Shown here piece after piece: positions 1,393 through 18,893 of a stretch of DNA of 26,929 bases; within the stretch, counting starts at the first letter, position 1, and every line of letters begins with the position of its first letter. The position numbers and the translations under genes were made by a program. A model generated the notes under the pieces. It searched no databases, was not told the DNA's origin, and saw only the letters and a list, made by a program, of their open reading frames with translations. The stretch is from Sporichthyaceae bacterium (GTDB taxonomy: Bacteria > Actinomycetota > Actinomycetes > Sporichthyales > Sporichthyaceae), in contig DASXPS010000171.1 of NCBI GenBank assembly GCA_036493475.1, forward strand, positions 1 through 26,929, read 5' to 3'.

Positions 1393-1812
1393 ATGAGCGA
1401 AATCGCTGACGCGAACCGCCGCCTCATCCAGTCCGCGTTCGACGCCTGGAGAGCCGGCACGGCGAACATCTCGGACCTGTTCGCCCCGACCATGGTGTGG
1501 CGGATTGAGGGCCACTCACTTGTGAACGGGGAGTACACCTCCGCGCAGGACTTCATCGACCTCGTCCTGCAGCCCTTCGGCGCCCGCTTCAGCACCGGCC
1601 AACGCTTCCGCCCGGTCAACATCCGCTCCGTGCTCGCCGACGGCGACACCGTTGTCGTCATCTGGGACGGACACGGCGTCGCCAACGACGACGTCCCCTA
1701 CGAGAACAGCTACGCCTGGATCATGCAGCTGCGCGACGGCAAGGTCATCGACGGCACCGCCTTCTTCGACAGCATCTCGTTCGACACCTTCTGGCAGCGC
1801 GTCAAACCGTGA
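1393..1812 (+). CDS. SnoaL-like / NTF2-fold protein (ketosteroid-isomerase-like).
   Basis: 139-aa ORF. SD AAGGA about 9 nt upstream of the ATG. Composition and motifs (DGDTVVVIWDGHGVANDDVPYENSYAWIMQLRDGKV) are typical of the SnoaL_2 / NTF2-like fold. Confidence 0.7.
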   Translation: MSEIADANRRLIQSAFDAWRAGTANISDLFAPTMVWRIEGHSLVNGEYTSAQDFIDLVLQPFGARFSTGQRFRPVNIRSVLADGDTVVVIWDGHGVANDDVPYENSYAWIMQLRDGKVIDGTAFFDSISFDTFWQRVKP

Positions 1813-2599
1813 GCGGCACCACGATCGCGCGGTAGTCAGGGAACGACCGCAGCCAACCGGCCGCGCGTCCGGTGTCCACGAACGCGGCGGTGGCGTAGAC
1901 GTCGGCCCAGAGCAGGCTGGGGCCGGCGACGGTCGCCGAGAGGACGCCACCGGCGGGCGCACCGGTTGCCGGGTCGACGATGTGGGCCCCGCGGGCGGCG
2001 GTCCCCGAGGTGGCGACGGCGCCGTTGCGCAGGGACAGCACGCGGAGCGTGCGCGATCGTCGGCGTGGGTCCTCGATGGCGATCCGCCAGTCCGGGGTGT
2101 CGCTACGCGCACAGCGCACGGCGATGTCGCCGCCCGCATTGATCAGCGTGTCATGCGGCCCGAGTTCGGCGAGCTGCGTGCAGAGCGCCTCGAAGGCCTG
2201 CTCCACCGCCCACCCCTTCACCAGTCCGCTGGGTTCGAAGGCTGGCCTGCCGTCGACGTCGGGCAGCCAGGCGCAGAACGCGCCATGGGTCCGCCTCGTC
2301 GCCTCCGCGCACAGCGCGACAACCTCCTGCACGCGCGGACCGGCCAGGTCCAGCCGTAGATCGCCGCGGCGGATCGCGCTGATAGTGCTGTCCGGACGGT
2401 ACGTGCTGAATGTGGCCTCGTCCGCGGCCAGCGTGGCGAACGCGAGGTGCACCAACGCGGCCACCTCGGCGCCGGTCGCGCGCGGGCCCCGCACGTGCAC
2501 GCTGATCGGCAGGCCCATCAGCTGCGCGACGAAGGCGCGGCGTGGTTGCTCGGTGCGGACCTCGCGGTGCAGCGGCCAGGCCGTCGCGCCGCCGCTCAC
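1802..2599 (-). CDS. apbE: FAD:protein FMN transferase (ApbE family).
   Basis: Motifs LMGLPISVHV, INAGGDIAV and ATSGTAARGAHIVDPATG are ApbE hallmarks. The GTG start overlaps the upstream stop (GTGA), indicating translational coupling. Confidence 0.85.
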   Translation of the reverse strand: MSGGATAWPLHREVRTEQPRRAFVAQLMGLPISVHVRGPRATGAEVAALVHLAFATLAADEATFSTYRPDSTISAIRRGDLRLDLAGPRVQEVVALCAEATRRTHGAFCAWLPDVDGRPAFEPSGLVKGWAVEQAFEALCTQLAELGPHDTLINAGGDIAVRCARSDTPDWRIAIEDPRRRSRTLRVLSLRNGAVATSGTAARGAHIVDPATGAPAGGVLSATVAGPSLLWADVYATAAFVDTGRAAGWLRSFPDYRAIVVPLTV

Positions 2600-3081
2600 A
2601 GGTGGGCCTGGTCGATCGCGGATTGCAGCGAGCTGATGTAGCCGTCGCTGGTCACTGTCGCGCCGGAGATCGAGTCGATGTTGGCGCTCTGCGCGCTAAG
2701 CGCGGCCTGGTTCAGGATCGGCAGCGCGTAGGCGTTGATCTGTTGGTCACGGAAGTTGTTGTGTGGGTATTCGATGGCCTGCGAGTTGGTGATCTTCCCG
2801 TTCTTCACGGTGATCTGGACCGCGACGATGCCCCAGCGGGTGTTCACCCGGGAGCCGGTGTAGGTCCCGGACGCGGTCTTGGTGGCGGGTGTGGTCTTGA
2901 CGGCGGGTGTAGATGAGGCCGCGTCATCGGTTGTCGTGTCCTCGACCGTGGTGGAGCCGGGGTCGGTCGGGGTGGCCGGTGTCGGCTGCGCGGCGGCCAC
3001 CGAGTTGGTGCTGGTGTGATAGCTGAACAGCAGCACCACGGCGCTGAGGGTGCTCATGAACCAGAACAGGATGCGGCGCAC
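2596..3081 (-). CDS. Membrane-anchored FMN-binding domain protein. Likely start GTG 3081 (SD GGGAG upstream); alternative ATG 3057.
   Basis: N-terminal TM segment RRILFWFMSTLSAVVLLFSY. Low-complexity Thr/Pro linker. C-terminal FMN_bind-type motif ISGATVTSDGY (the Thr that ApbE flavinylates). The long ORF 2596..3279 has an Arg-rich upstream extension and is probably not translated. Confidence 0.7.
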   Translation of the reverse strand: MRRILFWFMSTLSAVVLLFSYHTSTNSVAAAQPTPATPTDPGSTTVEDTTTDDAASSTPAVKTTPATKTASGTYTGSRVNTRWGIVAVQITVKNGKITNSQAIEYPHNNFRDQQINAYALPILNQAALSAQSANIDSISGATVTSDGYISSLQSAIDQAHL

Positions 3082-3095
3082 GGCGGGCTCCCTCA

Positions 3096-4532
3096 CTACC
3101 AGCTGAAGCGTTCGAGGTGGATGCATTCGGTGGGCACGCCTGCGTCGAGGGCGGCGCGGCGGGCGGCGTCCATCCAGGCCGTGGCACCGCAGATGTAGAC
3201 GTCGTGCTCGGCGATGTCCGGCACGATCGCCCGCAGCGCGGCGGCGTCCGACCACTGCGCGGCCTCGGCGGGCAGCCACGACATCCGACCGGTAAGCCGG
3301 GGACCGAGTAGGAACACCAGCTGGGCGCCGCGGGCGGCGGCCAACGCCTCCAGCTCGTTGCGCAGGATCACCTCGCGCTCGCTGTGCGCCCGGTAGATCA
3401 CGGTGACCTCGCCGGGGTTCTGCGGGAGCTCCTCCAGCAGCGCGCGCAGCGGTGTGATGCCGATGCCACCGGCGATCAACGTGACCTTGCGCCGGGTCCG
3501 CACCCCGGCGTGCAGCCGGCCGTACGGGCCCTCGATCGCGACCCGGGTGCCCGGGCGGAGGGTGGACAGGCCGCGGCTGTCGTCACCGAGGTCCTTGACG
3601 GTGATGCGGAGGGTGGCGCCGTTGGGTGCGGCCGACAGCGAGTACGGGTGGCCCTTGCTCGCACCGGCGCGGGTGAGGAAGCGCCAGATGAGGAACTGCC
3701 CGGCGGCGGTGGGTAACCGGTGCAGGTGACGACCCGTCATCTCTACCGACACCACCCCCGGCCCTTCCGGCAGCACGGCGGTGACCCGCAGGTCGTGGCG
3801 CAGCGTGCGGTACACCGGCACACCGACCCGCCAGATCAGCACCGCACCCGCGGCGGCCGCCCACAGCGTCCACCAGTACACCGTGGCCAGGTGGCCGGCG
3901 AGGAAGTCCTGACCGGTCCACAGCTGGTGCGGCAGCGCGAGGCCGACGCCGAGATAGGCGTAGAGGTGCAGTAGGTGCCAGGACTCGTAGCGCAGCTTGG
4001 CCCGGGCCCGCTTGATGCTGGTCGCGCTCACCATCACCAGCAGGGCGGAGCCCGCCACCGCGAGCAGCATGCCGGGGTAGTCGACGGTCAGCCGCCACGC
4101 CTCGACCAGCGCATTGCGGGCGTCCTGCCCGGCATAGCCCAGAGTGATCAGCACGATGTGAGTCAGCATCAGAAAGAATGAGGTGCAGCCGACCAGTCGG
4201 TGTCGCCGGGCCAACTCGTCCTGTCCGTAGACCCGCTCGATCACCGGCAGCCGGGCCATCAGCAGCACCTGGATGAGCAGCAGGTCCGCGGACACCAGGC
4301 CGGTGATGCGGCCAAGGCTGAGGTAGGTCTGGGTCGCGGAGTCCAGGTCGGTTGCCCCGCCGCCGCGCAGCCACAGCGCGACGACGATGAGCACGTTCGC
4401 CCAGGTCGCCAGCACGACGGCGTCGCGCCACCAGGTCGGCGTCAGCGGCCGGCGCTGTGGGCCGGTGGCGCGGTTGCGCGCGGGCCCCCCCGGCGCAGCC
4501 GCCGTTTGGTCCGCGGCATAAGTCGACATCAA
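3096..4532 (-). CDS. Ferric-reductase-like transmembrane flavocytochrome (FRE/NOX-type: TM heme domain plus FAD- and NAD-binding domains).
   Basis: 478 aa. About 6 TM helices with His pairs. FAD-binding HPYSL / RITVKDLGD. NAD(P)-binding VTLIAGGIGITP. C-terminal CGATAWMD. Stop TAG at 3096-3098. Confidence 0.85.
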   Translation of the reverse strand: MMSTYAADQTAAAPGGPARNRATGPQRRPLTPTWWRDAVVLATWANVLIVVALWLRGGGATDLDSATQTYLSLGRITGLVSADLLLIQVLLMARLPVIERVYGQDELARRHRLVGCTSFFLMLTHIVLITLGYAGQDARNALVEAWRLTVDYPGMLLAVAGSALLVMVSATSIKRARAKLRYESWHLLHLYAYLGVGLALPHQLWTGQDFLAGHLATVYWWTLWAAAAGAVLIWRVGVPVYRTLRHDLRVTAVLPEGPGVVSVEMTGRHLHRLPTAAGQFLIWRFLTRAGASKGHPYSLSAAPNGATLRITVKDLGDDSRGLSTLRPGTRVAIEGPYGRLHAGVRTRRKVTLIAGGIGITPLRALLEELPQNPGEVTVIYRAHSEREVILRNELEALAAARGAQLVFLLGPRLTGRMSWLPAEAAQWSDAAALRAIVPDIAEHDVYICGATAWMDAARRAALDAGVPTECIHLERFSW

Positions 4533-4737: not shown

Positions 4738-5700
4738 TCAGGACAGCAGCGTGGCTTCCGGCTCGCTGGCGAAGGCCTCCCAATAGGCGGACGAGAATCC
4801 CGCCAGGTGCGGGAACCCCCAGCGCTGGGCGATGACCGCGACGGTCTCGGCGGCGGTGGGGTCGGCGGACTGGAGGTCGCGGTGGGCGGCCTCGAGGCGG
4901 ACCCGGGCCAGGTACGCCAGCGGCGTGGTGTCGAGCTGACGACGGAAGGCCGCGCGAACGGCCCGCGGAGTGCTGCCTGCAGTGTTGGCGATGTCAGCCT
5001 CGGTGATCGGCAGCGATGCGTGGGCGTCGATGTAGGCGACCGCGCGGCGCAGGGCCGGCGGACCGACGTCGCCCGGGCCGGGCACGTAGCCGCGACTGAC
5101 AGCGGTGTTGGGGAAAACAGAGATAGCGGTGGCGACGACCAGGTCGAACAGCGTGCGGTGGATGAGGGGGTTGGTGATCCGGGCGTCGCCGGCGTGAAGT
5201 TCGCGGTACAGCATGCGTGCGGTGGATGCCCACAGATCTGCTCGCTGCGGCATCGGCGCGGCCGCGGCGAAACGCAGATCGCCGGGTTCCAGGCCGGTGA
5301 GCGTCGCTGCGGCCTGATGCACCTCGTGCCAAGCCAGTCGCACCAACAGCACGTCGAAGTCCTGCCAGGTCGCACAGCAGGGTTCGTCCCGGAAGTGCAC
5401 CATCGAACCGCTTGCGCAGACGACCTCACCGGCACGCGGGAATTCGTAGCGCATCCGGCCGCCCAATGAGGTCAGCACCGTCATCTCCGGGAAGACGTCC
5501 ACCTCGGTGTCCGCGTGCAGGCCATGGTTGGTCACCCGGTCCACGGCCAGCGTGCCGGTTGCCATCGTGTCCACCCGCAGGTCGGCGTTGGACCCGCTGC
5601 CCGCGCGCCGCGCGCGCACCCCGACGTAGTTCTGGTCGAAGAAAGCGTGCGCCTCTTCGGCAGAGGTCGTCGCAAACTCGATGCGCTGCACCAGCCCCAC
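4738..5700 (-). CDS. AraC-family transcriptional regulator.
   Basis: C-terminal HTH region ...ITEADIANTAGSTPRAVRAAFRRQLDTTPLAYLARVRLEAAHRDLQ... is typical AraC/XylS. 320 aa. Confidence 0.8.
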   Translation of the reverse strand: MGLVQRIEFATTSAEEAHAFFDQNYVGVRARRAGSGSNADLRVDTMATGTLAVDRVTNHGLHADTEVDVFPEMTVLTSLGGRMRYEFPRAGEVVCASGSMVHFRDEPCCATWQDFDVLLVRLAWHEVHQAAATLTGLEPGDLRFAAAAPMPQRADLWASTARMLYRELHAGDARITNPLIHRTLFDLVVATAISVFPNTAVSRGYVPGPGDVGPPALRRAVAYIDAHASLPITEADIANTAGSTPRAVRAAFRRQLDTTPLAYLARVRLEAAHRDLQSADPTAAETVAVIAQRWGFPHLAGFSSAYWEAFASEPEATLLS

Positions 5701-5750
5701 CTTTGGCGCCTATCCCCGGCCGGACGTCGTATGCATCCGCACGCGACAAC

Positions 5751-5776
5751 GCCCCGCCCGATCTCTCGGGCGGGGC
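5751..5776 (-). terminator. Hairpin immediately 3' of tRNA-Phe: 10-bp perfect stem CCCCGCCCGA / TCGGGCGGGG with a 4-nt loop.
   Basis: Inverted repeat read directly at 5752-5775. No U-tract, which is common for mycobacterial terminators. Confidence 0.45.
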
Positions 5777-5787
5777 GATTTGGCCTG

Positions 5788-5861
5788 TGGCCAGGGGCGG
5801 GGTCGAACCGCCGACCTACCGCTTTTCAGGCGGTCGCTCGTACCAACTGAGCTACCTGGCC
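5788..5861 (-). tRNA. tRNA-Phe (anticodon GAA). CCA not encoded.
   Basis: Reverse complement reads GGCCAGGTAGCTCAGTTGGTACGAGCGACCGCCTGAAAAGCGGTAGGTCGGCGGTTCGACCCCGCCCCTGGCCA. Cloverleaf with anticodon loop CTGAAAA. Confidence 0.85.
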
Positions 5862-7072: not shown

Positions 7073-7423
7073 GTGCTGAACATTGACCGGGGCGAGTTCG
7101 AAGTCCTTGTATCCGAGGCACTGGATCTGCTGCCCGAGGAACTCACCGCGTTGATGAACAACGTCGCGGTGTTCGTGGAGGACGAGCCGCCGGCGGATGA
7201 CCCGGATCTGCTCGGCGTTTACGACGGCGTGCCACTGCCGGAACGCGACGGGTGGTACACCGGCGTGCTCCCGGATCGGATCACGATCTTCCGTTTCCCG
7301 ATCCTGCGCATCTGCAGCACCTCCGCCGAGGTCGTCGAGCAGGTGGAGATCACCGTGGTGCACGAGATCGCGCACCACTTCGGCATCGACGACGACCGGC
7401 TCGACGAACTGGGGTACGGCTAA
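7073..7423 (+). CDS. Small zinc metallopeptidase-family protein (HExxH; DUF1025-like).
   Basis: 116 aa. HEIAHHFG zinc-binding motif. Acidic N-terminal half. Confidence 0.7.
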   Translation: MLNIDRGEFEVLVSEALDLLPEELTALMNNVAVFVEDEPPADDPDLLGVYDGVPLPERDGWYTGVLPDRITIFRFPILRICSTSAEVVEQVEITVVHEIAHHFGIDDDRLDELGYG

Positions 7424-7857
7424 GGGGCCGGCCAATGAGTCGGCGGCAGGTTACGCGTCACGCCGAACGCCACGATGAGGGCGAGCAGACCCCACAATGC
7501 GGCGGGCGGGGCGACGCGGGTGGTGCGCGGCCGGCCGAGGTGGCGGCCGAGCCAGGCGACCCACGCCGCGGCCAGGTACGGCAGGGCCAGCACGGCCAGC
7601 ACGTTGCGGTGCACGGCGGTGGACAGGTCCCCGTGGGTGAGCGCGTGCATTGCGCGCAGTGACCCGCAGCCCGGGCACCACAGCCCGGTTATCGCGTGAA
7701 ACGGACAGCTCGGGTAGTGGCCGGGCTGTTCGGGATTGCGCACCGCGAGCACGCCGGCCGCGGTTATCGAGGCGGCCAATGTGGCCAACGGCGCGCACAC
7801 CGCGGGCACTCGGCGCGGTGCCGAGGCCGCGGTGCGTGGCGCGACGGCGAGGCTCAT
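7420..7857 (-). CDS. DUF2752-like membrane protein with a CxxC pair.
   Basis: MSLAVAP...CPFHAITGLWCPGCGSLRAM... plus hydrophobic helices. The ATG at 7857 overlaps the TGA stop of the upstream CD225 gene (ATGA), indicating coupling. The long ORF 7420..8430 extends upstream as an out-of-frame overlap with the CD225 gene and is treated as artefact. Confidence 0.65.
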   Translation of the reverse strand: MSLAVAPRTAASAPRRVPAVCAPLATLAASITAAGVLAVRNPEQPGHYPSCPFHAITGLWCPGCGSLRAMHALTHGDLSTAVHRNVLAVLALPYLAAAWVAWLGRHLGRPRTTRVAPPAALWGLLALIVAFGVTRNLPPTHWPAP

Positions 7858-8399
7858 GAGTTCGAGCTGGCCGCGATGAAGTAGATGGTTCCTACGATCA
7901 CCCCGATGACCGCCGCGGCGATCGCGAAGTTGCGGGCCTTCTGGGACGCCTCGACGGCACCGGCGTAGTCGCCGGCCGCGTATTTCACGTTCACCTGGTT
8001 GGCGAACACGATCGCCGCGATGCCCAATGGCAAGCAGCACAGGATCGTGCTGGCGATGGCCCACGGCAGGTAGGTGCTCGGCTTGGGTGTCGCGGACGTG
8101 CCGTAGGGGGTGCCGGTGTAGGGCGGGGGTGGGCCGGAGCCGGGCGGGGCGCCGTAGGGCGGCGGCGCCTGTGGCGGCGGGGCGTAGCCGGGGGGCGGCG
8201 CCTGCGGCGGCGGGGCGTAGCCGGGGGGCGGCGCCTGCGGCGGCGGGGCGGCAGGCGGTTGGTACGGCTGCTCCCACGGCTGCGGGCCGGGCGGCGGAGC
8301 GGCGGGTGGTGGCGGTGGCGGTGCCGGCGGCGGCGGCGGTTCGGACGACTCGGGTGGCGGTGCGAACGGGTCGTTGGTTTCGTCCCCGGATTGACTCAT
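7854..8399 (-). CDS. CD225/dispanin-family membrane protein with a proline-rich N-terminus.
   Basis: C-terminal YLPWAIASTILCCLPLGIAAIVFANQV... matches the CD225 / interferon-induced TM fold. SD GGAGAGG upstream of the ATG at 8399. Confidence 0.75.
   Translation of the reverse strand: MSQSGDETNDPFAPPPESSEPPPPPAPPPPPPAAPPPGPQPWEQPYQPPAAPPPQAPPPGYAPPPQAPPPGYAPPPQAPPPYGAPPGSGPPPPYTGTPYGTSATPKPSTYLPWAIASTILCCLPLGIAAIVFANQVNVKYAAGDYAGAVEASQKARNFAIAAAVIGVIVGTIYFIAASSNS
8161..8255. repeat. 33-nt tandem direct repeat, about 2.9 copies, inside the CD225 gene. Encodes PPPGYAPPPQA repeats.
   Basis: ggcggcgcctg[t/c]ggcggcggggcgtagccgggg read three times consecutively. Confidence 0.8.
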
Positions 8400-12722: not shown

Positions 12723-14924
12723 GTGCCGGATCGGATTGAGGCGCCGTCGGGCGTTCACCTGCTGGGTGTGACCGTGTGCGGGCCGGCCCCGGTCGGGCGG
12801 GTGCACCTCCCGCTGCACGAGCCGCTGTTGGCGCTTTACGGGCGCAACGGCGTCGGCAAGACCCGGTTGCTGACCGCGGTGATCGCGGCGCTGCGCGGGC
12901 ACCGGACCGACGGCGGGTGGGGCCTGGTGCACATCCACGTGTCCGGCGCGGAAGCCGGGTTGGACCGGCACGGCGAGCTGTGGCGGGACGGACTGGCCCG
13001 CGCCATGCGCGAGCACCTCAACCGGCTGCGCGGGGACGTGGTCGCCCATTTCGCCCGCCGCCGCGACGAGGAGTACGAGGAGGGGCCCGGCGGCGACGAC
13101 TACGTCGAGGTGCTCGAGGACTTCCGCTCGTTCACCGCCGCGGTGGTCGACGAGGCGCACAGCCCCACCAGCCTGCGCGAGCTGGTCGGCGCGCACCTGG
13201 CCGCGCAGCGGATGCTGCTGGACGAGCTGGAGCATGTCGGGGACTTCATGCGCTTCTTCGCGGCGGCTATCAACGAGATCACCGTCGGCGGACACTACGT
13301 GCTGCGCGCGACCGGGGACGCCGACGAGCCGCGCTGGACGGTGTACGCGGCGGCGTCCCCGCAGGACCCGGCCTGCCGGGCGTTGATCGAGCAGGACCGG
13401 GCCAAGGGAGAGGACGACGAGGCACAGGCGGGTGTCGGCGCACCGACGCTGTCCAACTCCGGGTTCCCCTGGCGCGAGCTGTGTGACCTCTCCGACGCGT
13501 TCATCTCCGCCCGTGAACAGGACCCGGACGTGGCCGCGGTCGGCTGGCCGGACTGGGCCGCGGTGCCGGTGTTGGAGGTGGCCACGGTCAGCGCGCCGCT
13601 GGTCGCCATGGTCACCGACGAGACCATTCCCGACGACGTGGACCGGCTCACCCGCGAACACATCCTGCGGGCCGCGGCCGGCCGGGTGCTCGCGTCGTTC
13701 GCCTCCGGCGGCGCGGTGCTGCACCCGGACGTGGAGCCCCTGCTGGAGTCGCTGACCGCGGTCGCCAGCCGGTTCCTGCGCTACGTGTTCCCCGATGCCC
13801 CGGAGCTGGTGTTCGCACCCGGCGATCCGAACGCGTGGCTGGCGGGCCGGCTGCCCGTCTGGGTGGCCCGCTTCCCTGACGGCACGTCACTGCCGCTGCG
13901 CGCGCTGTCCACCGCGCAGAAGCGCTGGGCGTCGCTGTCCTGTGCGCTGGCGGTGTCCATGGCCGCACCGGAGTCGTTGCCGGTGACCTTCCTGTGCGAC
14001 GAACCCGAATCGGGTCTGCACCGGCGCGCGGAGGCCGAACTGCCCGACGCGTTGGCGCGCATCGCCGCGGAGTCCGGCGTGCGCATCGCGGTGGCCACCC
14101 ATTCCCCGGCGTTGCTGGACCCGTCGCGTGCGGTGCTCGTGCACGTCACCCGGGTCGGGTCGGGGGCGGCGGTGGCCCGGCCGATGGACCTGGCGTTGCG
14201 CGCGGAACTGGAACGCGAGTCGATGAGTGAGGACCTCGGGCTGACCCCGGCGGACCTGCTGCAGATGGTGCGCTGCATCGTCATCGTCGAGGGCAAGCAC
14301 GACGAGGTGGTGCTCGGCGGCCTGCTCGCCGAAGACCTGGACATGTGGAGCGTGGTCTACCCGGTGGGTGGGGCCAAGCAGATGGCGTCGCTGGCCAGTG
14401 CGGGTCTGCTGTGGGACTTCACCGATGCGGCCATCGTCATCGTGGTGGACAACATCGCGCGGGCGACGATTGCGCCGGTGTGGGAGAAGGCGCAACGGGC
14501 GATCGCGTCGGGGCGCTTCGCCGCGGCGGAGCGGGCGTTGGTGCCGTTGGGGAAGCTGCCCGGCGCGGAGGCGCGGTGGATGCAGAACCTGCTGCAGCGG
14601 GCCATCCGGGCCAACCGGGCGCACCGCATCCGGTTGGAGACGCTGTCCGCGCCGGACATCATCTGTTACCTGCCCGCGGAGGAGTTCGTGCCCGGCAAGA
14701 CCTGGGACGAGCTGATCGCGGAATGGCGCGAGTCGTTCGGCGACCGTGAGGCGACCAACATCAAGGCGTTCCTGTCCCAGCGATACGACGCAGTGCTCAA
14801 CACCGAGGCGGTCGGCCGGGCGACGGCGCGGGCCAAGCCCAACGGGGAGTTGCGCGCGTTGGGGGCACGGATTCGGGAACTGGCAGCGTTCGGCCCATGG
14901 GCCGGCGAACGATCGGAGGACTGA
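12723..14924 (+). CDS. 733-aa fusion protein: N-terminal SMC/RecF/OLD-type ABC ATPase (AAA_15/AAA_21-like, with a long insertion between Walker A and the signature motif) plus a C-terminal TOPRIM-like (DUF4435/OLD-like) domain. Candidate OLD-family / fused PARIS (AriA-AriB)-like defence protein.
   Basis: ATPase motifs: Walker A LYGRNGVGKTRLL; ABC signature LSTAQKRWASL; Walker B plus D-loop VTFLCDEPESGLH; H-loop VATHSP. TOPRIM-like region: CIVIVEGKHDEVVL (E at 14290-92), then VVYPVGGAKQ, then AIVIVVDNIA (D at 14449-51). The canonical DxD is D-N here. GTG start with a weak SD. Confidence 0.75.
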   Translation: MPDRIEAPSGVHLLGVTVCGPAPVGRVHLPLHEPLLALYGRNGVGKTRLLTAVIAALRGHRTDGGWGLVHIHVSGAEAGLDRHGELWRDGLARAMREHLNRLRGDVVAHFARRRDEEYEEGPGGDDYVEVLEDFRSFTAAVVDEAHSPTSLRELVGAHLAAQRMLLDELEHVGDFMRFFAAAINEITVGGHYVLRATGDADEPRWTVYAAASPQDPACRALIEQDRAKGEDDEAQAGVGAPTLSNSGFPWRELCDLSDAFISAREQDPDVAAVGWPDWAAVPVLEVATVSAPLVAMVTDETIPDDVDRLTREHILRAAAGRVLASFASGGAVLHPDVEPLLESLTAVASRFLRYVFPDAPELVFAPGDPNAWLAGRLPVWVARFPDGTSLPLRALSTAQKRWASLSCALAVSMAAPESLPVTFLCDEPESGLHRRAEAELPDALARIAAESGVRIAVATHSPALLDPSRAVLVHVTRVGSGAAVARPMDLALRAELERESMSEDLGLTPADLLQMVRCIVIVEGKHDEVVLGGLLAEDLDMWSVVYPVGGAKQMASLASAGLLWDFTDAAIVIVVDNIARATIAPVWEKAQRAIASGRFAAAERALVPLGKLPGAEARWMQNLLQRAIRANRAHRIRLETLSAPDIICYLPAEEFVPGKTWDELIAEWRESFGDREATNIKAFLSQRYDAVLNTEAVGRATARAKPNGELRALGARIRELAAFGPWAGERSED

Positions 14925-16992: not shown

Positions 16993-17894
16993 CAGACGTG
17001 TTCGATCCAGCCGTAGATGTCGGCCGGGTCCATGCCGGCCAGTACATCCGGGTGGTCGGTGGTCATGTTGGGGAGATCATGCCGGCGCGGGTGCAGGTCG
17101 GCGGATGGGTGCGCGTCGAGGTCAACGGCGTGCGGGGGATTCGCTGCTGCCCGGCCCGCAGGGGCGACGCGGGTCAGGGCGCGGGCGGCGCGGGACCGGA
17201 CCTCCGGGTCCGGGTCCTCGTGCAGCAGCCGGGTCAGCGGCTCGGTGGCGTTGCGCGCCCCGATCAGGCCGAGGGCGTCGGCGCAAACCGAGCGCACCGC
17301 GGGGCGTTGCTCGTCCAGGCCCCAGAGCAGGCCGGGCACGGCGGGGCTGCCCAGGCGGACCAGGCTGTGCAGGACCAGGGCCGGCTCCAGCCCCCGGCGG
17401 CGAACGAGTCCGGCGACCAGGGCGTTGGCGGCGGCGGGCGCGCCGCTGTAACCGAGTCCGCGGACCGCGGCCCGGCGCACCGCGGGGTCGTGGTCGGCGA
17501 GCAGGCGGAGGAGTTCGCGGGCGCAGGTCTGTGGGGCCAAAGTGCCCGGGGTCTCGGCGGCGCGGGCCCGGTGTCGGTTGGGCAGCCGGGTGCGGCGCAG
17601 CGAGCGGGCCACCGCGCCGCGCGCACGCATCAGCTCGATCAACCGGCTGCGGGCGTCGTAGGGCAGCTGGGCGAGCATGGTGAGCAGGGTTGGTTCGATG
17701 AGCAGCCAGCAGCGGCGGTCGGACCGCGCCAGGTGTTCCAGCGCGCCGGGTTGCTCGGCCTGCACCGCGTGCAGGAACGGCTGCACGTAACTGCGCAGCG
17801 CCTCGTCGCGTTGTGCCGCGGTTACCGCGTGCCCGCGGCGGCCCGCGAGGCACGAGGCCACCAGCAACGCGACGCTGAACAGGGTGTACAGCAT
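16992..17894 (-). CDS. HEAT/PBS-lyase repeat protein with an N-terminal TM anchor (about 300 aa). Start coordinate uncertain by 1 nt.
   Basis: MLYTLFSVALLVASCLAG TM segment. Repeated DPAVRRAAVRGLG / DPDPEVRSRAARAL HEAT-like units. SD GGGAGGA upstream of this ATG. The upstream part of the 425-aa ORF is Arg/Pro-rich and probably not coding. Confidence 0.6.
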   Translation of the reverse strand: MLYTLFSVALLVASCLAGRRGHAVTAAQRDEALRSYVQPFLHAVQAEQPGALEHLARSDRRCWLLIEPTLLTMLAQLPYDARSRLIELMRARGAVARSLRRTRLPNRHRARAAETPGTLAPQTCARELLRLLADHDPAVRRAAVRGLGYSGAPAAANALVAGLVRRRGLEPALVLHSLVRLGSPAVPGLLWGLDEQRPAVRSVCADALGLIGARNATEPLTRLLHEDPDPEVRSRAARALTRVAPAGRAAANPPHAVDLDAHPSADLHPRRHDLPNMTTDHPDVLAGMDPADIYGWIEHV

Positions 17895-18035
17895 GTCGAG
17901 GGTCCTCCCAGCCGTGGTGCGGGTGCCGCCTCCAGCACCCGCACGACGCGTAATGCTTCGGTCAAGCGGCGGCAATGCTTGAGGGGACGGACTCCCGGGT
18001 TGGAGCGGGTCCCCGGCCCGGAGAAGATGGGGCGC

Positions 18036-18893
18036 ATGGGATACGCGCGGCGGATGTGGGCGCGGTACGAGCCGATTCATGCGGTGACGTACTTCGCGCC
18101 GGAGTGCAAGGCGGTCACGGACGCGCTGGGGATGCGCGGGTTCTGGATGGGGTACTGCGCGACGCGCTGTGCGCCGCTGGGCGAGGTCGGGCCGGAGGTG
18201 GCCACCGCGGTGTTCTACGGCTTCCACCCGCAGCGGGCACGGCGGGCACTGCCGGACGCGTGGCGGCACACCTCCGCGGCGCAGGCACTGGCCGCGCGAC
18301 TGGCCGGGATGGACGAGGCGATGCGCCGGTTATGGGGGGACGCGGTCGAGTCACCGGCGGTGGCCGAGGCGGCAGAGTTGGCCGTGGCGGCGGCCCGGGC
18401 GGCGGACTGTGCGGGCCGGGCGCTGGCCGCGGCCAACCAGGCGCTGCCCTGCCCCGACGCCCCGCACCTGGCGCTGTGGCAGGCCACCACCGTGTTGCGT
18501 GAGCATCGGGGGGACGGACACAACGCGGTGCTGATTTCCCGTCAGATCTCACCGGTGCAGGCACACCTGCTCAAGGCCGGGTCCGGGGAGAGCGAGGGTG
18601 AGGCGCTGCGTGTGGGTCGGGTCTGGCCGGAGGAGGTATGGGCGGCCGAGGTGGACAGCATGCGGCGCGCAGGGTTGCTGGATGGCGACGGGGTGTTGAC
18701 TGCGGCCGGCGCGGCGTTGCACTCCGAAATCGAGGCGGCCACCGATGCCGCGGCCGAGCAGCCGTGGCAGGCGCTCGGTGTGGTCGGCACCGAGCGGTTG
18801 GCGCAGTTGCTGACGCCGTTGGCGCGCATGGTGATCGACAGCGGCACGTTGCCGGTGCCCAATCCCGTCGGCGTAGGCCTCGAGGACCTCTAG
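18036..18893 (+). CDS. Conserved actinobacterial hypothetical protein (possibly SCO6745-like family). Start ATG 18027 or 18036.
   Basis: Coherent 285-aa C-terminal portion of ORF 16998..18893: YEPIHAVTYFAPECKAVTDALGMRGFWMGYCATRCAPLG .... The 5' two-thirds of that ORF is antisense to the HEAT gene and rejected. Confidence 0.55.
   Translation: MGYARRMWARYEPIHAVTYFAPECKAVTDALGMRGFWMGYCATRCAPLGEVGPEVATAVFYGFHPQRARRALPDAWRHTSAAQALAARLAGMDEAMRRLWGDAVESPAVAEAAELAVAAARAADCAGRALAAANQALPCPDAPHLALWQATTVLREHRGDGHNAVLISRQISPVQAHLLKAGSGESEGEALRVGRVWPEEVWAAEVDSMRRAGLLDGDGVLTAAGAALHSEIEAATDAAAEQPWQALGVVGTERLAQLLTPLARMVIDSGTLPVPNPVGVGLEDL

Follow-up and report, generated by a model that had tools for sequence, protein, structure and literature searches.

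A three-gene operon for a NOX-type flavocytochrome, an anchored FMN-binding protein and a signal-less ApbE in a Sporichthyaceae bacterium

What do bacterial NOX-type membrane proteins reduce in vivo, and how does an exported flavodomain obtain its covalent flavin when the dedicated transferase carries no export signal and no exporter of flavin adenine dinucleotide (FAD) is encoded nearby? Both questions are raised by a contig of 26,929 nucleotides from a Sporichthyaceae bacterium (GCA_036493475.1, DASXPS010000171.1; the whole stretch is here referred to as the window). It carries three successive genes for a NOX/ferric-reductase-type flavocytochrome (here named FRE), a membrane-anchored protein with a domain binding flavin mononucleotide (FMN_bind) and an FAD:protein FMN transferase of the ApbE family. 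Together they probably form a self-contained module by which the cytoplasm would supply the cell envelope with reducing power. In terms of annotation it adds a further case to a system on record from about 1,500 genomes, namely an actinobacterial operon of a biochemically uncharacterised kind. Its value is that of a clean minimal example for the two questions, in which the candidate acceptor is genetically attached to the NOX-type protein.

All positions refer to the window, and the genes of the operon are located on the minus strand. The FRE gene (4529-3096, 477 amino acids) starts with ATG 4529 and ends with TAG at 3098-3096. It is followed by a spacer of 14 nucleotides (3095-3082) with a Shine-Dalgarno-like GGGAG at 3092-3088 and by the FMN_bind gene (3081-2596, 161 amino acids; start GTG 3081, stop TGA 2598-2596). 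The GTG of the ApbE gene (2599-1802, 265 amino acids) is placed at 2599-2597, so that start and stop overlap as GTGA (2599-2596). The window has a GC content of 70%, and since third-position GC reached 0.89-0.92 in all three frames they can be regarded as the coding frames. The arrangement is not a product of chance, because the same gene order recurs in related genomes.

The initial annotation, made from the sequence alone, had described these genes as one operon-like electron-export module, which agrees with our results, and the GTGA overlap it reported can be read directly in the sequence. Its FRE gene was correct apart from the 5' end, which was set one codon too early. The list of open reading frames (ORFs) started at TTG 4532, and ATG 4529 is the very next codon. 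ATG 4529 and the preceding Shine-Dalgarno-like GGGTGGGGAC were kept in the related loci L001 and L081, whereas TTG 4532 was not; furthermore, gene callers chose the ATG, and database homologs of 99% identity are 477 amino acids long. For the FMN_bind gene a start 12-36 nucleotides after the FRE stop had been proposed, which is about right: GTG 3081 lies 14 and the alternative ATG 3057 lies 38 nucleotides past the stop, and GTG 3081 agrees with 161-residue database homologs of 99% identity. Translational coupling, claimed for the entire operon, applies to FMN_bind and ApbE with their GTGA overlap but not to FRE and FMN_bind, which are separated by the spacer with its own Shine-Dalgarno sequence.

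The gene content corresponds to the 'MsrQ-like systems' of Meheust et al. 2021 (eLife, PMC8238504), defined as flavinylation-associated clusters in which a PF01794 protein is encoded at most 5 genes from an ApbE or FMN_bind gene. That catalogue comprises 1797 clusters from 1468 genomes, typically with apbE and an FMN-binding gene, and describes them as 'broadly conserved in Actinobacteria'; in 1437 of the 1797 clusters PF00175 is fused to the membrane protein. Cytosolic NAD(P)H was proposed as the donor and an extracytosolic flavin as the acceptor (PMC8238504). In the window the PF01794 gene, which also encodes PF00175, directly adjoins the PF04205 gene, and the PF02424 gene comes next. Nothing essential differs in content or definition; a VIT1 gene is absent from the window. 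Judged by its sequence features the operon is thus one more instance of this system. In our literature search the MsrQ-like system was treated only in this study, in a follow-up paper which modelled the cytochromes and in one review. E. coli MsrPQ itself is similar in that a heme membrane protein with a ferric reductase domain passes electrons to an extracytoplasmic partner. However, MsrQ has no fused dehydrogenase domain, receives electrons from quinol or Fre and serves a molybdoenzyme instead of a flavinylated domain, and the NCBIfam MsrQ model scored only 18.9 bits against FRE (cut-off 130).

The FRE product matched Ferric_reduct (PF01794, 4.4e-15) and NAD_binding_1 (PF00175, 9.2e-9, residues 352-458), with an additional weak match of FAD_binding_8. 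Its AlphaFold (AF2) model (predicted local distance difference test, pLDDT, 78.8; predicted template modelling score, pTM, 0.71) contains six transmembrane helices; a beta-barrel that would bind FAD and a Rossmann domain that would bind NAD(P)H follow them. When the model was compared with solved structures by Foldseek, three entries of SpNOX ranked best (template modelling score, TM, 0.60/0.70), followed by human NOX2, NOX5 and DUOX1. The dehydrogenase domain alone gave TM 0.73-0.77 to that of SpNOX, and phmmer aligned FRE with SpNOX at 6e-12.

Four histidines, numbered from TTG 4532, were invariant among 44 FRE homologs. His111 (4202-4200) and His125 (4160-4158) are located on the third transmembrane helix and His189 (3968-3966) and His202 (3929-3927) on the fifth, within the heme-ligand region 4202-3927. 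Their spacings of 14 and 13 residues equal those of H69/H83 and H129/H142 in SpNOX, where H69/H129 hold the inner and H83/H142 the outer heme (PDB 8qt6, 8qq7). Hydropathy and the positive-inside rule placed the N-terminus and the dehydrogenase domain of FRE in the cytoplasm, His111/His189 near the inner and His125/His202 near the outer face of the membrane. His111/His189 are therefore predicted as ligands of an inner and His125/His202 as ligands of an outer heme. The dehydrogenase motifs (3650-3186) HPYS (residues 295-298), GGIGITP (355-361) and CG (448-449) are likewise invariant columns of the alignment, and Trp478 in the C-terminal aromatic FSW (3107-3099) is nearly so (at least 90% of the sequences). 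From general knowledge of the FNR/NOX families we take HPYS to contact FAD, GGIGITP to contact NAD(P)H and CG to serve the cofactors as well. The protein would thus be expected to bind two b hemes and to oxidise NAD(P)H.

FRE and SpNOX share the six-helix ferric reductase domain, the spacing of both histidine pairs, the FAD/NAD(P)H dehydrogenase domain and short outer loops, yet SpNOX, although the best structural match, is only about 17% identical. A disordered N-terminus of about 30 residues is peculiar to FRE. Moreover, SpNOX is encoded by a stand-alone gene without a known partner, while FRE is co-encoded with a flavoprotein and its maturase. The authors of the SpNOX structures described the outer heme as solvent-exposed and suggested a protein acceptor which they did not identify.

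The second protein of the operon is a candidate for such a partner. It matched PF04205 with 1.5e-8 (35.6 bits, cut-off 22) and is composed of MRR and a conserved transmembrane helix ending with FSYHTS (residues 2-24), a linker (about 25-70) and the FMN_bind domain (72-161). The helix end FSYHTS is invariant in the alignment of orthologs. The linker contains 15 Thr, 9 Ala and 6 Pro among its 48 residues and is a hypervariable segment of Thr/Pro/Ala/Ser type. This difference between a conserved helix and a hypervariable linker suggests that the helix may dock on the membrane protein. The domain carries the motif D136-S-I-S-G-A-T142 (2676-2656; Thr142 codon 2658-2656), which fits Dxx[ST]GA[ST], and SGAT with its threonine was kept in all 68 orthologs encoded in the related loci. 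Thr142 is the predicted site of the FMN phosphoester; the FRE and ApbE proteins were searched for a flavinylation motif as well, and none was found in them. In the orthologs of L062 and L063 an extra tail of about 40 residues rich in Gly, Pro, Gln and Asp follows the usual C-terminus, and the ApbE gene of these two loci starts 48 nucleotides downstream of FMN_bind without an overlap.

A close relative of this domain is found in SaFMN3 of Streptomyces azureus, where covalent FMN on the motif threonine was seen crystallographically (PDB 8P2A; PMC10339131). The domain aligned with the second domain of SaFMN3 (SaFMN3-D2) over 88 residues (9.5e-20) with the SGAT motifs in register, and both proteins share an N-terminal anchor and a flavin transferase gene alongside. 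SaFMN3 possesses three tandem domains instead of one, and the residue after the motif threonine is Val in the window protein but Tyr73 in SaFMN3-D2, where it packs on the isoalloxazine. The midpoint potential (Em) of SaFMN3 is -184 mV, and its reduced form is slowly reoxidised by O2 (PMC10339131).

With SpNOX, NOX2, NOX5 and DUOX as nearest solved structures, one could suppose a bacterial NADPH oxidase proper, which under physiological conditions would pass its electrons to O2 at the outer heme or the tethered FMN in order to produce extracellular superoxide or H2O2. SpNOX does consume O2, and O2 reoxidises reduced SaFMN3. This reaction is slow, however (PMC10339131), and the SpNOX authors themselves question whether O2 accepts the electrons physiologically, and they found no canonical O2 site. 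In addition, a dedicated flavoprotein partner, always co-encoded, and the maturase for it would be needless for plain O2 reduction. We therefore regard such an oxidase as unlikely, and O2 reduction may rather be a side reaction of the electron-exporting module. Ferric iron chelates, or else another small soluble oxidant, are the likeliest candidates for its terminal acceptor.

Whether the flavodomain is located outside the cytoplasm depends on the N-terminus. By hydropathy the FMN_bind protein has the N-terminal MRR and a hydrophobic helix, with few positive charges past it. A dibasic pair directly after the Met was found in 65 of the 68 orthologs (RR 34, KK 18, RK 7, KR 6). As the pair is conserved as charge, insertion with the N-terminus inside and the C-terminus outside is favoured, and twin-arginine translocation (Tat) as a general route is disfavoured. 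The flavodomain is consequently predicted to face the outside of the cytoplasm.

The third protein belongs to the ApbE family (PF02424, 1.1e-32, 114 bits, cut-off 25.6). Its AF2 model (pLDDT 89.8) matched Ftp of T. pallidum (4xdt) with a Foldseek TM of 0.78 and also 1vrm, 6nxi and 7esa, and it superposes on TM1553 of T. maritima, ApbE of V. cholerae and FmnB of Listeria. K128-G129, G156-G157-D158, T197-S198-G199, H206 and D233...T237 were invariant in 45 homologs, and the KG, GGD, TSG, H-x-x-DP and D...T motifs align with those of 1vrm, 3pnd and 5mgy. According to general knowledge of the family, these motifs presumably have the usual catalytic roles.

In this ApbE we looked for a signal peptide, a lipobox and a transmembrane segment, and none was present. 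The ORF is bounded upstream and cannot be extended. Only residues 1-6 of the model have a pLDDT below 50 (average of the first ten residues 46), and residues 20-27 (RRAFVAQL) and 30-37 (LPISVHVR) are already part of the fold as the strands of its first beta-hairpin. In an alignment with mature Salmonella ApbE the MG motif, here at residue 28, falls at about residue 20 of that protein, and PRK10461 of NCBIfam reached only 39 bits (cut-off 498). Two ways to rescue an export signal were considered and rejected. The conserved PRRAFV is no cryptic Tat signal, for it is the high-confidence strand 1 and aligns to mature ApbE structures. A longer ORF or a fusion with FMN_bind does not apply either, given the upstream boundary and the absence of PF04205 from all 120 closest homologs.

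The same holds for the relatives, of which approximately 300 were examined in total. No hydrophobic N-terminus was found in the 120 closest database homologs, nor in the 57 orthologs encoded in related loci from Kineosporiaceae to Microbacteriaceae. A set of 118 representatives of 50%-identity clusters had a median of 14 residues before MG, none of them hydrophobic and none with a lipobox. Even for representatives of 35-38% identity the gene immediately upstream is an FMN_bind gene with SGAT or SGAS at its end.

As far as can be read from the proteins themselves, the two topologies do not match, and this mismatch is conserved: ApbE is of the cytoplasmic type, and its substrate is signal-anchored. 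The mismatch is the sole unexpected element of the operon. The other properties named in the initial annotation were confirmed: the architecture of transmembrane heme, FAD and NAD domains in FRE by Pfam, the AF2 model, the four invariant histidines and the invariant cofactor motifs; the anchor, the Thr/Pro linker, the [S/T]GAT motif and its conserved threonine in FMN_bind. An extracytoplasmic location of the FMN_bind domain agrees with the predicted topology. Extracytoplasmic flavinylation, which it had assumed, does not fit the signal-less ApbE of the window and of every relative examined. Neither the MsrQ-like section of the catalogue nor the review mentions that the ApbE of these clusters has no signal.

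The mismatch becomes apparent by comparison with other flavinylation systems. NqrC/RnfG of Na+-NQR and RNF and PplA of Listeria with its FmnB also comprise an anchored FMN_bind protein, flavinylated on Thr by an enzyme of the ApbE family and involved in moving electrons across the membrane, but their ApbE-family enzymes have lipoprotein signals and act outside. Their membrane partners are NqrB/D/E or Ndh2 instead of a NOX-type cytochrome. Additionally, flavinylation in Listeria requires the FAD exporter EetB/FmnA, whereas no gene for an exporter of this type was found near the window operon. The ApbE of Klebsiella pneumoniae, which matures fumarate reductase, resembles the window enzyme in lacking a signal peptide and acting in the cytoplasm; its substrate, however, is a soluble cytoplasmic enzyme, while the only neighbour with the motif in the window is the signal-anchored protein.

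The mismatch would disappear if the flavodomain remained in the cytoplasm, with the helix inserted N-out/C-in or acting as a peripheral anchor, was modified in place and fed or regulated the dehydrogenase side of FRE. The K. pneumoniae pair of a cytoplasmic ApbE and a cytoplasmic substrate provides a precedent. The dibasic pair and the few charges past the helix favour the opposite orientation, and envelope tethers typically have a hypervariable linker of the Thr/Pro/Ser kind. Relatives such as SaFMN3 are predicted to be anchored outside as well (PMC10339131), and the FAD and NAD(P)H sites of FRE are already complete, so that it is hard to see where a cytoplasmic FMN would enter the chain. A cytoplasmic flavodomain is for these reasons decidedly unlikely.

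For an exported flavodomain we infer cofactor loading, the direction of electron flow, docking of the partners, where and when flavinylation occurs and which acceptor is used from the arrangement and conservation described above. Cytoplasmic NAD(P)H would reduce the FAD which the NOX-type protein holds in its C-terminal dehydrogenase domain. The electrons would then traverse the membrane over two b-type hemes, from the inner (His111/His189) to the outer one (His125/His202), whose exposed position may allow transfer to the FMN covalently bound at Thr142 of the tethered partner. The partner would be held by its conserved N-terminal helix, so that its flavodomain could swing on the Thr/Pro-rich tether of about 50 residues and pass electrons on to an external acceptor, which is not encoded in the module. 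ApbE would be the dedicated maturase which moves FMN from FAD to Thr142 and, by the GTGA overlap, is made in step with its substrate. Flavinylation most likely precedes translocation of the flavodomain and takes place in the cytoplasm; this is the simplest reading, because ApbE lacks an export signal and a gene for an FAD exporter of the EetB/FmnA type is absent from the vicinity. ApbE is in fact active on truncated substrates in the cytoplasm of E. coli (PMC10339131).

Hints toward iron as acceptor come from VIT1, an iron transporter gene found near the cluster in 5 of 80 related loci and in 153 catalogued clusters (PMC8238504), and from Bifidobacterium breve, where mutation of apbE or of an FMN_bind gene (sifE) confers sensitivity to iron limitation.

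Several points weigh against electron export with flavinylation before translocation. We found no precedent for a cytoplasmic ApbE acting on an exported substrate, and our literature search revealed no biochemically characterised member of this cluster type. Tat export of the folded, pre-flavinylated domain was rejected as a general route, as the twin arginine varies (18 of the 68 orthologs have KK) and the n-region consists of a single Met. A flavinylated chain would then in general have to pass through Sec. Concerning iron, no iron transporter is encoded near the window operon, and upstream of it no IdeR box was detected (best match 10/19, the level of shuffled sequences).

More generally, a large clade of compact, signal-less ApbE, translationally coupled to signal-anchored FMN_bind proteins, may flavinylate its substrates before export, and the tethered flavoprotein may be the missing physiological protein acceptor of SpNOX-type enzymes. 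We consider this combined proposal possible but put it forward tentatively, with the greater chance that it does not apply in full. At least 140 clusters at 50% identity belong to the clade, which includes NOX-type and NqrB-like systems of monoderm lineages. If the proposal is true, 'flavinylate-then-export' would make FAD export unnecessary, and Sec (in some lineages Tat) would have to pass a chain carrying phosphoester-linked FMN.

One locus from a groundwater metagenome (L088, 1514-4438) deviates in its membrane partner. Its signal-less ApbE starts directly at MGT and follows an FMN_bind gene with a transmembrane anchor. The ApbE gene converges on the gene of a 513-residue NqrB-like/NAD_binding_1 protein, which fits the 'NQR/RNF-like' system of the catalogue. 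Signal-less ApbE of this clade therefore occurs outside NOX-type clusters as well.

The conservation of the neighbourhood was analysed in the mentioned set of 80 loci encoding FRE relatives. The closest was a Sporichthyaceae metagenome-assembled genome (FRE 84%); others belonged to Kineosporiaceae, Lapillicoccus, Propionibacteriaceae, Pseudonocardia and Microbacterium. FMN_bind followed FRE wherever downstream DNA was present, at short distances (medians of tens of nucleotides). This adjacency was kept in about 70 actinobacterial loci. ApbE came next in 57 loci, 48 of them with a 4-nucleotide [AG]TGA overlap, and was not directly downstream in about 17. The order FRE-FMN_bind-ApbE is hence kept across families of Actinomycetota. 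In the Kineosporiaceae locus L002 (4477-7437) two tandem FRE-type paralogs precede FMN_bind and ApbE, and a response regulator and a histidine kinase lie before them.

An ORF for an AraC-type regulator (5700-4738, minus strand; HTH_18, 1.9e-13) is located 205 nucleotides upstream of the operon in the same orientation, and the initial annotation had considered it the possible regulator. The operon could accordingly be an accessory of a catabolic regulon with the AraC protein as its dedicated regulator, all the more as the arrangement including AraC was repeated in a metagenomic contig of 99% identity. However, none of the 80 loci has an AraC homolog there. In the fully syntenic L081, whose FRE is 81% identical, a Polyketide_cyc2 (SRPBCC) gene on the opposite strand (7286-7891) fills the slot that separates tRNA-Phe from the operon, and the leader is nevertheless kept. 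Other lineages carry an OmpR-type response regulator and a kinase directly upstream. Control by AraC is thus very unlikely, and AraC is not a conserved neighbour. The same applies to the further flanking genes of the window, SnoaL_2, an M23 peptidase and a deazaflavin-dependent reductase, none of which recurs in the 80 loci. The two-component systems beside some relatives gave generic OmpR/EnvZ-like matches, all below the family cut-offs.

The last approximately 110 nucleotides before the FRE start are common to the window, L001 and L081, although L081 has no AraC gene. This conserved leader (4640-4530, minus strand) includes GGGTGGGGAC and is the probable promoter region of the operon. A scan for the sigma-70 promoter consensus gave no match, a scan for intrinsic terminators found nothing, the RNA fold of the leader is unremarkable (z -0.58), and an Rfam scan reported tRNAs only. 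A 15/19 match to the IdeR box, GTAGGTAAGGCAAACCAAA, was observed about 180 nucleotides upstream of the FRE start in the Dermatophilaceae locus L022; in every other locus the matches reached at most 12/19, which is the level of shuffled sequences.

Some further observations concern the surroundings of the operon. The region 4738-5861 holds the AraC gene and tRNA-Phe; the slot taken by AraC is variable and is bounded by the operon on one side and by a tRNA-Glu/Asp/Phe cluster (7003-5787, minus strand) on the other. On the other side a SnoaL_2 gene (1393-1812, plus strand) converges on ApbE (1802-2599, minus strand) with an overlap of the 3' ends of 11 nucleotides; L081 and L082 have this pair too, whereas it is missing from more distant loci. 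An ORF of 631 amino acids (16998-18893, plus strand) has an unusually high first-position GC of 0.81 and matched HTH_67 (2e-98) in its C-terminal half, the N-terminal 350 residues being without a domain match. A second ORF of 733 amino acids (12723-14924, plus strand) contains an AAA_21 ATPase domain and gave weak PADLOC matches to ATPases of defence systems of the AriA, GajA, OLD and HEC-01A types (best 2e-12, partial coverage). Finally, the block 12212-7854 (minus strand) encodes a CD225 protein, a DEAD/DUF3516 helicase (850 amino acids, DUF3516 1e-204), whose HamB-like PADLOC matches are confined to the helicase C-terminal domain, and a LytR_cpsA_psr protein; this block is syntenic with L081.

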